DNA of 26,041 nucleotides from Thermodesulfobacteriota bacterium (GTDB lineage Bacteria; Desulfobacterota; Desulfobulbia; Desulfobulbales; SURF-16). The stretch spans positions 1-26,041 of the forward strand of contig JBDLIE010000035.1 in assembly GCA_039715015.1 (NCBI GenBank), read 5' to 3'. This document shows positions 1 through 3,000 of the stretch, piece after piece (the first letter of the stretch is position 1; each line of letters starts with the position of its first letter). The position numbers were made by a program.

Positions 1-3000
1 CCTCTGCCCTGGGGCTATAGATAAACAAAACCCTTAAAACAAGGGATTGATCTTCTATTTTCTGATTGACGACTGACAGACATATCAGTTTCCACAATGT
101 CCCTTGCGCGGCGGAAGGCAAGTGGTGCCGAAGGCCAGGTCTGCTAAGGGTGCCCTTTTTGGTTCGTTTTTGGGCAAGCAAAAATGAACAATATAATATT
201 AACAAGAAGAAATACTGAAAAATTTTAGCTGCCGCAATCCTTGCTGCCGCCTTTGATTTTATAGATGGCGTGGGCCAGGCCAGGCAGGATAGTCTCCAAA
301 TTTTCCCGGGCGCCTCTTTCGCTGCCGGGCAGATTGATAATCAGGCAATTTTTGCGGATACCAGCCACCCCACGAGAAAGAATAGCATTTGGAGTTTTCT
401 GGAAGCTTGCCATGCGCATCATCTCGCTGATGCCTGGAATCTCTTTGTCAAGGAGAGGAAGGGTGGTCTCTGGAGTTTGATCGCTGGGGCTTACCCCGGT
501 GCCCCCCGTGGTCAAAATGAGGTCGAGGCCCTCTTGGTCGCACCAGGTTTTCAGTGTGCTGGAGATGGCGGTTGGGTCATCGGCGACAATGGTATATCTG
601 CTGATTGTATATGGGCCTGCAGAGCGTAATTGTTCTTGGAGTTGTGGGCCGCTGGTGTCCTGACGTTTCCCTTGAGAACCCTTGTCGCTGATGGTGAGAA
701 TTCCGCAATGGTAGATTTCTGCTGTTTCCTTGTCCATGCCTTGGCCTAGTGCGGGGCTGCTTCCTTCTCCAGCTTTTCATAATGAGAGAAAACAGCCTTG
801 AAGGTAGCGCGGCCACCGCTCAGCTGAGCTAGGTCGCCACCGTATTCAAGAATTTCCGCCATGGGCACTTGGCTGACAATGACCTCGTTTCGTGCCTCAG
901 AGCGGATTTCCATAATCTTGCCGCGTCTTTTGCCAAGATCTTGGAGGACTTCACCGACACAGTCATCCGGCAGGGTAATAGAGAGATTCATCAGCGGTTC
1001 GAGGAGGATCTGCTCCTGATCATTCTGTTGTTTTTCCTGGTAGGGCACGGTGGGCAAGGTGAGTTCAAGTTCGATGCCGAATTTGCGGGCTATTCGTTCG
1101 CAGGCAACCTCAAGATGAAGACGTCCTTGGCCGGATAGAAGGGTTTCTCGGGTTCTGGGTTCTTGGCTCATGTGGAGGGCCGGATCTTCCGCTATGATCT
1201 TTGAGAGGGCCGTATACATGTTTTCGCTGTCAGTCTGGCTCTTGCAGGCAACGGCGTAGGTAAAATGGGAGCGAGCTACATTTGGAAGTGGCTCCAAAAT
1301 AGGGGCTTCCGAGGTGTCGGAGAGGGTGTCGCCCGGGGCGCTGGCATTGAGGTCGACCAAGACCCCGATCATGCCCGCTGAAAGAGCCTCTGTTTTTTCC
1401 AGGCTACCGCCGTATGGGATGTAAAAGGAAGCGGCTTTTTCTTCGCTGTTACGGCTTACATTGTAAAGGGTGCCGGGGGTAAGGGTTCCAGAATCAACTT
1501 TGCAGTAATAAAGGATGCCCATAGTGGGATCGTGGTCGATCTTGAAGATCTGGCTGCGTTGGGAAGAATTTCCTTGCCCGCTTTCTGGAAAGAGGCGGTG
1601 GGCGAGTTCAAGGAGGAGGCCCGCTCCGAAACCTTTTTTTGCAGCTCCAGGAAGCACCGGGGACAGGGCACCGGATGCAACAGCATTTTTTAATCCAGAC
1701 AGAAGATCTTCCTTGTCAAGTTCGCCTTCTTCGAGCAATTCCTCAATGAGCTCGTCATCTGTTTCTGCGACTTGCTCCATAAGCTTTTCCAGAGCGATAT
1801 AGGTTTCGTCCTGCATGGAGGTGGGGATTTCACCCTCGGTGAGAGAGGGCCAGTCTTCTTCGGAAAAATAGAGGGCCTTTTCGCCAAGAACATCAACAAC
1901 GCCCTTGAAATCTGCGCCGCTGCCAATGGGCAAGTATAAGATGGCGGGGTCAAGCAGGATGTTTTTACGGATTGCAGCTAGGGTACCCTTGAAATCTGCC
2001 TTGTCCTCATCCATTCGGTTAATAAAAAGAATGGAGGGCATGGTGGATTGTTGAATGAGGCGAGCCGCTTTTTCCGTCTGAAACTTGTGGGCTTCGTCTG
2101 CACATATAGTCAGGACGGCATTATCACTGACCTGGGCCAGGATATCTGCTTCGTGAAGGAAGTTGTCATCCCCCGGAGTATTGGTGATAACCGTGTTCGC
2201 CCCTTGCCACATAAAATGAAGATGGCTGGAGGTGGTGGTCATCCCGTGGTCGAGAGATTCCGGGTCTTTGTCGATAACTGGATTCTCTATACCGGCAACC
2301 CTGAGAAGGGCGCGGCTGAGCGCTGTCTTGCCGGCCTTGGAGTGGCCAAGCAGAACGATGTTTTTGGTGGTCGTTGGAGCCCCCATGAAATATCTCCGTG
2401 CCTAGGTGCCGATTGCTTATGGTAAATGGTAAAGCATTGGCATCATGTATGAATTCTTGTTAAAACAGAGCCTGGCCTGTAGACTCTTTTAAAAAGATGG
2501 CGATTGAAAACAGATGTTTAACCTCGCTATGGCACGTATATTAAAGTCTGGCCTGTCAGAAAGCAAGCACTATAATCGTTGCGGAGATGCGGTTTTTAAC
2601 TGCCTGTAGATATCTGCCCTATGCTTGTGTTTTCCTTAGAGATCCACAGAAAGTCCTTGTCATTTTTTAACTCTATAAATCCATGAAGCAGGCATCAGAC
2701 GACACTGGAATAATAGCCCGTTCAGCGGGAACCGTCGGCTTTGCTGTTATGTGCAGCAGGGTGCTGGGGCTTGTCCGTGAACAGGTGTTTGCCATTTTTT
2801 TCGGAGCTGGCTACGCCTATGACGCCTTTGTTGTTGCCTTTCGTATCCCCAATCTCCTCCGGGATCTCTTTGGCGAAGGGGCCCTTTCTGCTGCCTTTGT
2901 GGCCGTCTTTGCCGATTATGACACGACAAGGGGGGAGAAAGAGACCTGGCAACTGGCCAATAATGTCTTGGCGTTTTTCGCTGTTTTCTTGAGCCTGCTG

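Follow-up and report, generated by a model that had tools for sequence, protein, structure and literature searches.

The closest described relatives of the protein reported here are the members of the EFG II, or EF-G2, subfamily of elongation factor G (PMC3150367), listed as 'EFGII' in Atkinson 2015 (PMC4342817), of which the proteins from T. thermophilus, M. smegmatis and B. thetaiotaomicron have been studied. Their hallmarks are a Gly at the first P-loop position (16) and a Leu at the last (25) (Margus, Remm & Tenson 2011, PMC3150367) and, as far as that account goes, the described EFG II proteins all keep the five-domain template. In M. smegmatis EF-G2 a Tyr stands in place of the catalytic His and the protein has no ribosome-dependent GTPase; H88Y nearly abolishes the GTPase of EF-G1 from the same species, and the EF-G mutants H91A, H91R and H91E are reported to be defective in GTP hydrolysis (PMC4532990). 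The role of EFG II has been an open question since the subfamily was defined: the trGTPase census (PMC4342817) calls it unknown and doubts that translocation is its main function.

EF-G has also been deprived of domain IV by engineering. The resulting protein (Rodnina et al. 1997; Martemyanov & Gudkov 1999, as summarised in PMC7749637) is said there to translocate about 1000-fold more slowly and to retain ribosome binding and single-round GTP hydrolysis. LepA (EF4) and BipA (TypA) consist of domains I, II, III and V, without IV (PMC5207388), and RF3 is an EF-G-family trGTPase that has neither domain IV nor domain V and carries a C-terminal domain of its own (PMC4342817). Our literature search, which ran mostly outside the subscription journals, found no report of a natural domain-IV-less EF-G.

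An EF-G relative without domain IV

The window, that is, the whole stretch of 26,041 nucleotides analysed, encodes a 546-residue relative of EF-G, here called P0001, in an open reading frame without interruption that is preceded by a Shine-Dalgarno sequence (GGAGA, 7 nt 5' of the ATG; Table 1). The host is a marine sulfur-cycle bacterium. Its genome (completeness 99.99%) encodes two full-length EF-Gs besides P0001, as the genome-wide survey's note had stated: one in the str operon, 3' of rpsL-rpsG (contig C56), with the motifs DTPGH and NKMD, and one on contig C31 with DTPGH, NKCD and the KDG insertion that is a mark of spdEFG1. RF3, LepA, BipA and IF2 are encoded as well.

P0001 comprises the domains G (with G'), II, III and V. 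Pfam places GTP_EFTU at residues 7-267, EFG_III at 373-442 and EFG_C at 461-542, together with a weak EF-G_D2 match at 279-357 (23 bits against a cut-off of 27), and finds no EFG_IV. When P0001 was compared with PDB chains using phmmer, its residues 8-452 aligned with 13-486 of T. thermophilus EF-G and residues 458-542 with 598-682; because this alignment skips residues ~487-597, domain IV of the T. thermophilus protein has no counterpart in P0001. Five residues occupy the place where domain IV would be expected, and the protein ends two residues past the domain V alignment. Both searches thus agree with the survey's description of the protein as EF-G domains G, II, III and V without IV. The gene is not an artefact, since the same architecture is present in 13 genomes. 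A split gene, with domain IV supplied in trans, was ruled out: a PF03764 search of the host genome matched only the two full EF-Gs and returned neither an EFG_IV remnant nor a stand-alone domain IV.

The 120 homologues of P0001 listed fall into the groups counted earlier: 24 short forms, P0001 included, that measure 537-552 aa and have no PF03764; 95 long forms with this domain, of 682-763 aa; and a single fragment of 359 aa. Compared with the long forms, the short forms have a switch I that is 12 residues shorter (19 in one genus); their domain II is some 20 residues shorter at its start, and the C-terminal helix is absent. The AF2 model of P0001 (pLDDT 89.1, pTM 0.87) superposes best on ribosome-bound EF-G (TMq 0.91-0.93), with lower values for most free EF-G crystal structures (0.70-0.75); judged by this model, P0001 retains the fold of the EF-G core, I(G')-II-III-V.

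The best family match of P0001 is the EF-G subfamily model NF009381 (PRK12740.1-5; 409.7 bits over model positions 7-481 of 692), whose cut-off of 583 bits it does not reach. Two other short forms score 379 and 388 bits and five long forms 897-901, on a model that is not specific, as the canonical EF-Gs of the host also pass it (748 and 669 bits). The canonical EF-G model TIGR00484 gives P0001 274.8 bits against a cut-off of 659, and P0001 also departs from canonical EF-G in having NTPGD for DTPGH and no domain IV. Scores against the models for TypA (95.6 bits, cut-off 757), LepA (75, cut-off 534), RF3 (86.6, cut-off 473) and the tetracycline ribosomal protection proteins (173, cut-off 775) all fall short. 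LepA and BipA share the domain composition of P0001, but they have C-terminal domains of their own, lack G' and keep DTPGH, whereas P0001 has no C-terminal domain of that type; RF3 likewise does without domain IV, but P0001 keeps domain V. In the tetracycline ribosomal protection proteins it is the loops of domain IV that dislodge the drug (PMC4342817), and this domain is absent from P0001. The EFG II hallmarks are present (GHSKAGKTAL, with G14 and L23 invariant in 24 of 24 short forms), without the five-domain template that includes domain IV.

Table 1. Features of the P0001 gene and its neighbours in the window
Feature	Position	Strand	Remarks
moaB/mog-like molybdopterin-binding gene, 170 aa	225..737	-	8 nt downstream of the P0001 gene
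CDS of the 546-aa domain-IV-less EFG II-type factor (P0001)	746..2386	-	stop codon 746-748
Domain V, residues 461-546	749..1006	-	PMAEILE invariant in short forms; EF-G C-terminal helix missing
Domain IV deletion scar, linker KQQNDQEQI, residues 452-460	1007..1033	-	joins domain III to V; pLDDT 74
Domain III, residues 363-447	1046..1300	-	most relaxed domain, omega 0.22
Domain II, residues 268-362	1301..1585	-	~20 N-terminal residues of long forms missing; relaxed constraint
G domain including G' insert, residues 1-267	1586..2386	-	Pfam GTP_EFTU 7-267; AF2 model confident
G' subdomain	1652..1936	-	acidic stretch LMEQVAETDDELIEELLEEGEL, mostly invariant among 24 short forms
G4 NRMD	2009..2020	-	motif reading
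G3 / switch II NTPGD	2168..2182	-	Asn for G3 Asp; Asp for catalytic His
Shortened switch I region IENPVIDKDPESLDHGMTTTSSH	2222..2290	-	12 residues shorter than in long forms; Thr kept
P-loop GHSKAGKT	2324..2347	-	Gly at first position; Ser for gate Ile; Lys for cation-binding Asp of EF-G
murJ	2683..4275	+	divergent from the P0001 gene; conserved upstream neighbour

The GTPase motifs

The motifs of P0001 read GHSKAGKT (P-loop), NTPGD (G3), NRMD (G4) and GAAK (G5), the altered G3 and G4 being those that the survey had given. In switch I, the Arg and Ile of EF-G are replaced by His and Met; HGMTT of P0001 aligns with RGITI of the host's own EF-G, a relaxed G2 in which Ser/Thr is kept at the fourth position. 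The position of the catalytic His is occupied by Asp or Asn in all 25 short rows of the alignment (PGD in 21, PGN in 4), and NTPG together with NRMD is found in 15 of them, namely P0001 and its 14 closest relatives (P0001-P0015, of which P0001 and P0002 are the same protein); the remaining 10 have DTPG and NKMD. Both the replacement and its distribution had been noted before and held up here. Among the 95 long forms listed, DTPGD is present in 89, and DTPGN, DTPGE, DSPGD and DAPGD in one each; two do not match the motif pattern, and His is found at the catalytic position in none. The motif distribution thus indicates that the catalytic His was lost before domain IV and that this loss is ancestral to the long forms. 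Nor is it a novelty of P0001, as the His is already gone in the long forms and its loss is described in EF-G2 proteins: M. smegmatis EF-G2 has Tyr where P0001 has Asp.

Other positions are strictly kept. All 24 short forms share G14, G19, K20, the G3 residues TPG and the G4 residue D126, and in the alignment of 119 short and long forms G14, G19, K20, P71, G72 and D126 do not vary at all. The motif readings support the view that P0001 lacks the canonical machinery for ribosome-activated GTP hydrolysis. This separates it from the engineered EF-G without domain IV, which has the same I-II-III-V composition but, as it is described in PMC7749637, keeps the catalytic His, whereas in P0001 the His and the gate residues are replaced and switch I is incomplete. 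In the genus of the window, the replacements of the G3 Asp by Asn and of the G4 Lys by Arg could in addition weaken Mg2+ or nucleotide binding altogether.

The Asp at the position of the His raises a different possibility, namely that P0001 is an active GTPase with non-canonical catalysis, for example with this Asp positioning the water, which drives a ribosomal rearrangement independent of domain IV, such as rotated-state stabilisation, tRNA release or subunit handling. The strong conservation of the Asp (in the 89 long forms and 21 short rows given above) suggests a role and not mere loss, and the G core has the lowest dN/dS of the protein. We nevertheless consider catalysis of this kind unlikely, because the hydrophobic-gate residues and those contacting the SRL are replaced, switch I is truncated, four short forms have Asn and not Asp, and EF-G with an acidic residue at this place (H91E) is reported to be defective in hydrolysis (PMC4532990).

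P0001 is an EFG II ortholog with a deletion

Each genome analysed here has three EF-G-type genes, and in nearly all related genomes the third paralog is ~687 aa long. This agrees with the trGTPase census, the supplement of which (PMC4342817), in its entries for three Desulfobulbaceae, gives exactly EFG, EFGII and spdEFG1. In the paralog tree, P0001 groups with the long forms against both EF-Gs of its own genome. The short-form gene also occupies the slot that the long form has in sister genera, upstream of a moaB/mog-like gene and divergent from murJ. Counting short and long forms together, 36 of 38 family loci have the moaB-like gene immediately downstream, and contig ends account for the two misses; across the order, the EFG II-type gene is paired with it in 21 of the 30 loci sampled. 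Upstream, murJ is present in 11 of 12 short loci and, in an order-wide sample, in 22 of 30 long-form loci. Of 40 family genomes, 13 have the short form and 26 of the 27 others the long form. None has both, which rules out an extra paralog beside the long form.

Because the slot is shared, no genome has both forms and the census trio matches, we conclude that the P0001 gene is a positional ortholog of the EFG II/EF-G2-type third paralog, with a deletion; flanks, mutual exclusion and tree grouping all trace its descent to the EFG II-type gene of the related genomes. The proposal of a new trGTPase subfamily absent from published censuses is not upheld by the shared slot, the mutual exclusion and the EFGII entries of the census. 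The survey had also found no hint in the neighbouring genes, which is right as regards function; for orthology it was the neighbours that settled the matter. Like P0001, EFG II is an accessory EF-G copy away from the str operon, with Gly first and Leu at the end of the P-loop, a relaxed G2 and a conserved acidic region in G'. P0001 differs from EFG II in having no domain IV, no C-terminal helix, a shortened switch I and no first hairpin in domain II and, in the genus of the window, in its G3 (NTPG) and G4 (NRMD).

Of the 401 genomes of the order, 13 share the domain IV deletion; they belong to 3 of its 83 genera. No domain-IV-less EF-G from outside this clade was present among the best 150 matches, where only P0024, from the same clade, matches full-length in one stretch; two other listed proteins below 600 aa are one without domain II and one truncated fragment. 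Around the P0001 gene, promoter and terminator scans stayed at chance level, and Rfam at gathering thresholds matched nothing in the window but a single tRNA; neither a riboswitch nor a leader was found close to the P0001 gene. Two genes away from it lies rsmE (4282-5016), which encodes a 16S rRNA methyltransferase.

Short and long forms alike have the moaB-like gene as a conserved partner in their operon, and this pairing (at the frequencies given above, and with a gap of 8 nt) is what would favour P0001 being an off-ribosome nucleotide switch, possibly acting with the co-transcribed moaB/mog-like protein in molybdenum cofactor metabolism. Non-ribosomal roles have been reported for the trGTPases CysN and Snu114 (PMC4342817). 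However, the pairing is equally conserved for the long forms, which have an intact domain IV with EF-G-like tip-loop sequences, and gene adjacency alone is weak evidence, so that we hold such a switch to be quite improbable.

A single ancient deletion followed by rapid change under selection

The short forms are one clade in the paralog tree (SH-aLRT 100), and in the tree of canonical EF-G all three short-form genera fall to the same side of one branch with an SH-aLRT of 100. Domain IV was lost in one ancient in-frame deletion in the common ancestor of these three genera; this event, together with the smaller deletions in switch I and domain II, is what is new here. According to the trees, it was followed by a burst of sequence change: the stem branch of the short clade measures 1.32 changes per site, compared with 0.15 on the matching branch of canonical EF-G, a rough comparison as the models differ. 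The short forms evolve ~2 to 5 times faster than canonical EF-G.

Purifying selection nevertheless continues, with a short-form dN/dS of 0.058-0.204 over 21 pairs. By domain, the values are 0.072 for the G core, 0.092 for V, 0.121 for G', 0.189 for II and 0.222 for III; in the long forms, domain III gives 0.048-0.063 and domain II 0.081-0.137. The short forms are therefore constrained most strongly in the G core and domain V, with relaxation in II and III, and the family offers a clean case of domain loss followed by rapid re-optimisation, with the 50S-facing parts constrained and the 30S-facing parts relaxed. This long selection after the deletion is a further difference from the engineered EF-G.

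Three deletions, a long stem branch and the high rate could also be the signature of a decaying remnant without selected function. We regard decay as very improbable and already disfavoured by the data: the frame is intact in 11 complete short-form genes from three genera (in two further short-form genomes the gene is cut by contig ends, being split between two contigs in G007 and at a contig end in G023), dN/dS stays within 0.06-0.20, conservation across the 24 short forms reaches 90% or more at about one position in three, and the Shine-Dalgarno sequence and the operon position are kept.

Proposed function

What the survey had described, a conserved EF-G relative without domain IV and without the catalytic His, is thus borne out, and its proposal that the factor is non-translocating gains support from the absence of domain IV: P0001 very probably cannot translocate. 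Since selection has kept the protein although its decoding-site arm is cleanly gone, P0001 probably docks on the ribosome and leaves the tRNA unmoved. In our reading, held at roughly even confidence, P0001 is a guanine-nucleotide- and ribosome-binding protein that does not translocate, hydrolyses GTP poorly at best and acts as an occupant of the factor site. This EFG II ortholog has lost, through in-frame deletions, domain IV along with the C-terminal helix, a piece of switch I and the hairpin that opens domain II. Most likely it still binds guanine nucleotide and docks where the ribosome receives its factors (sarcin-ricin loop, L7/L12 stalk and L11 region). The conserved acidic stretch of G', domain V and the predicted structure, superposing on ribosome-bound EF-G, are consistent with such docking. 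Since the decoding centre would be out of its reach, P0001 is expected neither to translocate tRNA and mRNA nor to push RRF; and, lacking by its sequence every element of canonical ribosome-activated hydrolysis, it probably remains in the GTP form. With docking but neither translocation nor hydrolysis, its selected action would probably be factor-site occupancy, which would make it a throttle or placeholder that acts reversibly on the 70S ribosome or the 50S subunit. We offer only tentatively, and as clearly the more doubtful proposal, a bolder idea: a natural 'EF-G delta-IV', as the survey had called it, long fixed in three genera and locked in the GTP state at the factor site, where it would be dedicated to throttling translation or parking ribosomes in marine sediment bacteria short of energy. 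The roles that the survey itself had suggested, translation brake, ribosome protector or hibernation partner, are likewise conjectural.

Some of the data temper this reading. With relaxed constraint on the two 30S-facing domains, II and III, and a truncated switch I, EF-G-like 70S binding by P0001 is not assured, and given the very long stem branch the function of the short forms may have changed to something off the ribosome. The distribution of constraint, concentrated on the 50S-facing G core and domain V, would also fit a LepA- or BipA-like assembly or quality-control factor that works on immature or stressed subunits and not on translating ribosomes. LepA and BipA have the I-II-III-V core without domain IV (PMC5207388), and a 16S rRNA methyltransferase gene, rsmE, is only two genes away in this window. 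But LepA and BipA each extend a C-terminal domain to the A site or the peptidyl-transferase centre and keep the catalytic His, two features that P0001 lacks; moreover, LepA and BipA are already encoded by the host, and DTPGH is present in both. An assembly role thus seems to us improbable, about as much so as non-canonical catalysis.

With the translocation arm removed by nature and the rest under selection, the short form is a simple test object for the role of EFG II. If P0001 binds ribosomes and blocks other factors, it would represent a new way of tuning bacterial translation, by a crippled elongation factor; if it acts otherwise, it would show what the I-II-III-V core is capable of alone. 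Were the 'EF-G delta-IV' occupant true, the selected function of the ancestral EFG II would never have needed translocation, and the short form would be the minimal functional core of this enigmatic family. The order-wide conservation of the operon with the moaB-like gene has no explanation in the factor-site reading. The short forms are named 'elongation factor G' or 'GTP-binding protein' by annotation pipelines, and both names are misleading.

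P0001 aligns with EF-G on both sides of a missing domain IV

The gene for the window protein P0001 carries a GGAGA Shine-Dalgarno sequence 7 nt ahead of the ATG. A Pfam search of the protein returned no EFG_IV. Aligned to PDB chains, its residues 8-452 matched T. thermophilus EF-G 13-486 and its residues 458-542 matched 598-682, so that 5 residues replace about 110 of domain IV, and it ends at the point where the EF-G C-terminal helix starts.

Coding sequence and Pfam domains of P0001
Feature	Position	Strand	Remark
CDS of P0001	746-2386	-	ORF, 546 residues
GTP_EFTU	P0001 residues 7-267		Pfam
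EF-G_D2	P0001 residues 279-357		Pfam, weak: 23 bits, cut-off 27 not reached
EFG_III	P0001 residues 373-442		Pfam
EFG_C	P0001 residues 461-542		Pfam

The AlphaFold2 model of P0001, built on a 119-row alignment, was confident (pLDDT 89.1, pTM 0.87); in it residues 450-460 (pLDDT 74) form a short hairpin that bridges domains III and V. In Foldseek the model was nearest to EF-G: ribosome-bound structures (7n2v, 9rtu, 4v9o, 7k51, 7l20) gave TMq values of 0.91-0.93, most crystal structures of free EF-G gave 0.70-0.75, and the free EF-G2 of T. thermophilus (1wdt) gave 0.87. Since the values are highest for ribosome-bound EF-G, the four domains are predicted to lie as they do in EF-G on the ribosome, which may partly echo the EF-G that the network has learned, full-length relatives being many in the alignment. 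EF-G2 from T. thermophilus and from B. thetaiotaomicron stood outside the alignments.

P0001 belongs to the EFG II family

The genome-wide survey's note had proposed a new trGTPase subfamily, and its homologue counts were borne out: the 120 proteins listed comprise 24 short forms, P0001 included (537-552 aa, 52-100% identity), one 359-aa fragment, and 95 long forms that carry PF03764 (682-763 aa, 35-41% identity). The NCBIfam model NF009381 scored about 900 bits with the five long forms tested, above every other EF-G model; it was the best model for the short forms too, yet with 379-410 bits, under the cut-off of 583, and it is not exclusive, because the canonical EF-Gs of the window genome pass as well. 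P0001 has the Gly at P-loop position 1, the Leu at the P-loop end and the relaxed G2 motif, Ser/Thr retained, by which Margus et al. (2011, PMC3150367) defined EFG II.

The window genome (3.0 Mb, 99.99% complete) encodes a canonical EF-G behind rpsL-rpsG and a second full-length EF-G, whose switch I contains the KDG insertion that marks spdEFG1; beyond these two, no EFG_IV domain is encoded elsewhere in it. RF3, LepA, BipA and IF2 are also encoded, all with DTPGH. According to the supplement of the Atkinson 2015 census (PMC4342817), Desulfobulbus, Desulfotalea and Desulfurivibrio have one identical trGTPase set, consisting of two EF-Tu, EFG, EFGII, spdEFG1, IF2, LepA, RF3, SelB and TypA. The window's family was matched to these taxa via the source names of the homologues (Desulfobulbaceae, Thermodesulfobacteriota MAGs), and every genome of the family has three EF-G-type genes. 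As this number agrees with the census and the second EF-G is spdEFG1-like, the third gene, that of P0001, is the EFG II member of its genome.

The short form occupies the slot of the long form

The window's family comprises 40 genomes in 11 genera; most of the genomes analysed are metagenome assemblies. The short form was present in all eight genomes of the window's genus, in 3/3 of a second genus and in 2/2 of a third; the other eight genera have the long form in 26 of their 27 genomes, the single miss being an 80%-complete assembly. None of the 40 genomes had both. Order-wide, the short form was found in 13 of the 401 genomes searched (3/83 genera) and was confined to this family; in the other families the full-length long form is the rule. 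Some order-level long-form matches (e.g. in genomes G093, G087, G067 and G100) were flagged with one internal stop (TGA, TAG, TAA); their open frames are still about 690-700 aa, and the matches probably extend a few residues beyond the true stop.

A moaB/mog-like gene lies directly downstream in 36 of the 38 family loci, short and long, the two misses being contig ends, and in 21/30 long-form loci sampled order-wide. Divergent murJ lies upstream in 11/12 short-form loci and 22/30 order-level long-form loci, and in only 4/26 long-form loci of the family (1.5-2 kb of flank examined). The shared neighbours indicate that the short gene occupies the ancestral slot, at which it replaced the long form. 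The arrangement holds order-wide (window 225-4275; loci L009-L046 and L085-L114): a divergent murJ, then the EFG II-type gene, and behind it the moaB/mog-like gene, whose product is a molybdopterin-binding protein. That P0001 works off the ribosome with a moaB-like partner would fit this neighbourhood, which the long forms have as well; we consider it improbable.

A single, fast-evolving clade under purifying selection

In the paralog tree (38 rows, with the incomplete genes L017, L020 and L025 excluded) the 11 short forms made one clade (SH-aLRT 100), whose stem measures 1.32 changes per site, against 0.002-0.4 for long-form branches; the node joining this clade to the family's long forms was left open, nested or sister. 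In the unrooted canonical EF-G tree (30 rows) one branch of length about 0.15, with support 100, parts the three short-form genera from the rest. Both trees are quick searches with SH-aLRT as the only support. The simplest reading is that the deletion happened once, in an ancestor shared by the three genera, and was passed on vertically, with a burst of change before constraint returned. In the alignment three deletions set the short forms apart from the long ones: switch I is 12 residues shorter (19 in one genus), about 20 residues are missing where domain II begins, and domain IV is gone together with the C-terminal helix. On matching branches the short forms appear to have evolved roughly 2 to 5 times faster than canonical EF-G, and the long forms about equally fast, a rough comparison because the two trees used different models.

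The dN/dS of the short forms was 0.058-0.204 in 21 within-genus pairs (0.17 in the least saturated pair, dS 0.13) and that of the long forms 0.04-0.115, ratios that are approximate because most dS values are near 1 (near saturation). The short forms are thus under continuing purifying selection, and functionless decay of P0001, for all the speed of its clade, is very improbable. By domain, the constraint on the short forms is relaxed chiefly on domain III and less on domain II; the nucleotide-binding core is as constrained as before, and domain V nearly so. Domains II and III make contacts to the 30S subunit (PMC5207388).

dN/dS by domain in short and long forms
Domain	Short forms	Long forms
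G core	0.072	0.078-0.133
G'	0.121	0.061-0.169
Domain II	0.189	0.081-0.137
Domain III	0.222	0.048-0.063
Domain V	0.092	0.056-0.085

GTPase elements are altered in short and long forms

The GTPase motifs of P0001 read GHSKAGKT, NTPGD and NRMD. The change of PGH to PGD or PGN, which the survey's note had pointed out, is real in the short forms (PGD in 21/25 rows, PGN in 4/25), but is not peculiar to them: none of the 95 long forms has the His, and 89 have DTPGD. Nor is NRMD peculiar to short forms, since 7 long forms share it; the G4 motifs of the 95 (P0027-P0121) are otherwise NKMD (60), TRMD (15), TKMD (5), NKLD (2) and NKID (1), with 5 matching no pattern. Further changes were seen in the alignment of the short forms: the hydrophobic-gate Ile of the P-loop is Ser (Gly in long forms), the monovalent-cation-binding Asp of the P-loop is Lys, and in switch I His and Met stand in for the Arg and Ile that contact the sarcin-ricin loop. 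What these residues do in EF-G is described in PMC4342817 and in a preprint (10.64898/2026.05.25.727771). The preprint also reports that M. smegmatis EF-G2, with Tyr for the catalytic His, has no ribosome-dependent GTPase, and that H88Y leaves EF-G1 almost without GTPase activity; hydrolysis defects have been reported for EF-G H91A, H91R and H91E (PMC4532990).

P-loop G14, G19 and K20, G3 P71-G72 and G4 D126 are the same in every one of the 119 sequences aligned, so that the nucleotide-binding residues are retained. From these motifs we infer that P0001 would bind nucleotide without efficient hydrolysis; binding is less certain in the window's genus, where the G3 Asp is Asn and the G4 Lys is Arg. 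We regard it as unlikely that P0001 is an active, non-canonical GTPase driving a rearrangement that requires no domain IV.

P0001 as a candidate occupant of the ribosomal factor site

Engineered EF-G without domain IV keeps ribosome binding and one GTP hydrolysis, and translocates about 1000-fold more slowly (PMC7749637, which cites Rodnina 1997 and Martemyanov & Gudkov 1999 for such a protein); P0001, unlike it, additionally lacks the hydrolysis machinery. The G' acidic stretch is retained in P0001, and its domain V is well conserved. In the best-supported reading, to which we give an even chance, P0001 would bind nucleotide and dock at the ribosomal factor site, would be incapable of translocation and recycling, and would act by occupying the site, as a throttle or placeholder. 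A rival reading is an assembly or quality-control factor of the LepA/BipA kind, for which we see only a small chance. What probability remains beyond the five readings named falls to other roles.

The EFG II (EF-G2) family and its divergent G domain are already known (PMC4342817, PMC3150367), as are members whose GTPase activity is low or absent (10.64898/2026.05.25.727771). A natural EF-G-family protein of the order I(G')-II-III-V, with domain IV unreplaced, was not found in the main text of the census (PMC4342817), nor was this order found in the EFG II study (PMC3150367), which stresses a single structural template, or in full-text literature searches. Among the best 150 representatives from a 1.84-billion-protein library, the sole single-stretch, full-length match to P0001 was a member of the same clade. 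No earlier natural case of this domain-IV-less architecture turned up in these texts and searches, and we take P0001 to be a novel form within a known family. P0162, a 577-aa EF-G-like cluster representative from outside the window, has GTP_EFTU, EFG_III, EFG_IV and EFG_C and no domain II; this may be a different case of natural domain loss, or an artefact of assembly or gene calling.

Other genes in the window

At 4282-8568, the lipid A/LPS genes kdtA, lpxK and lpxC come after rsmE (16S rRNA U1498 methyltransferase). A YtxH-like gene (131 aa) adjoins a DUF948 gene (125 aa) at 8654-9521 (-), beside a sigma-54-dependent response regulator (9623-11017). At 13336-19149 lie genes for an 823-aa competence protein of the ComEC type that has a metallo-beta-lactamase domain, for a 437-aa sigma factor of the sigma-70 family and for a 4-alpha-glucanotransferase, as well as one tRNA (19078-19149). 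At 20131-22753 (-), a gene of the 56-kDa selenium-binding protein family (SBP56, 448 aa) is the immediate upstream neighbour of a di-haem cytochrome c peroxidase/MauG-like gene (442 aa), with a 53-nt overlap.
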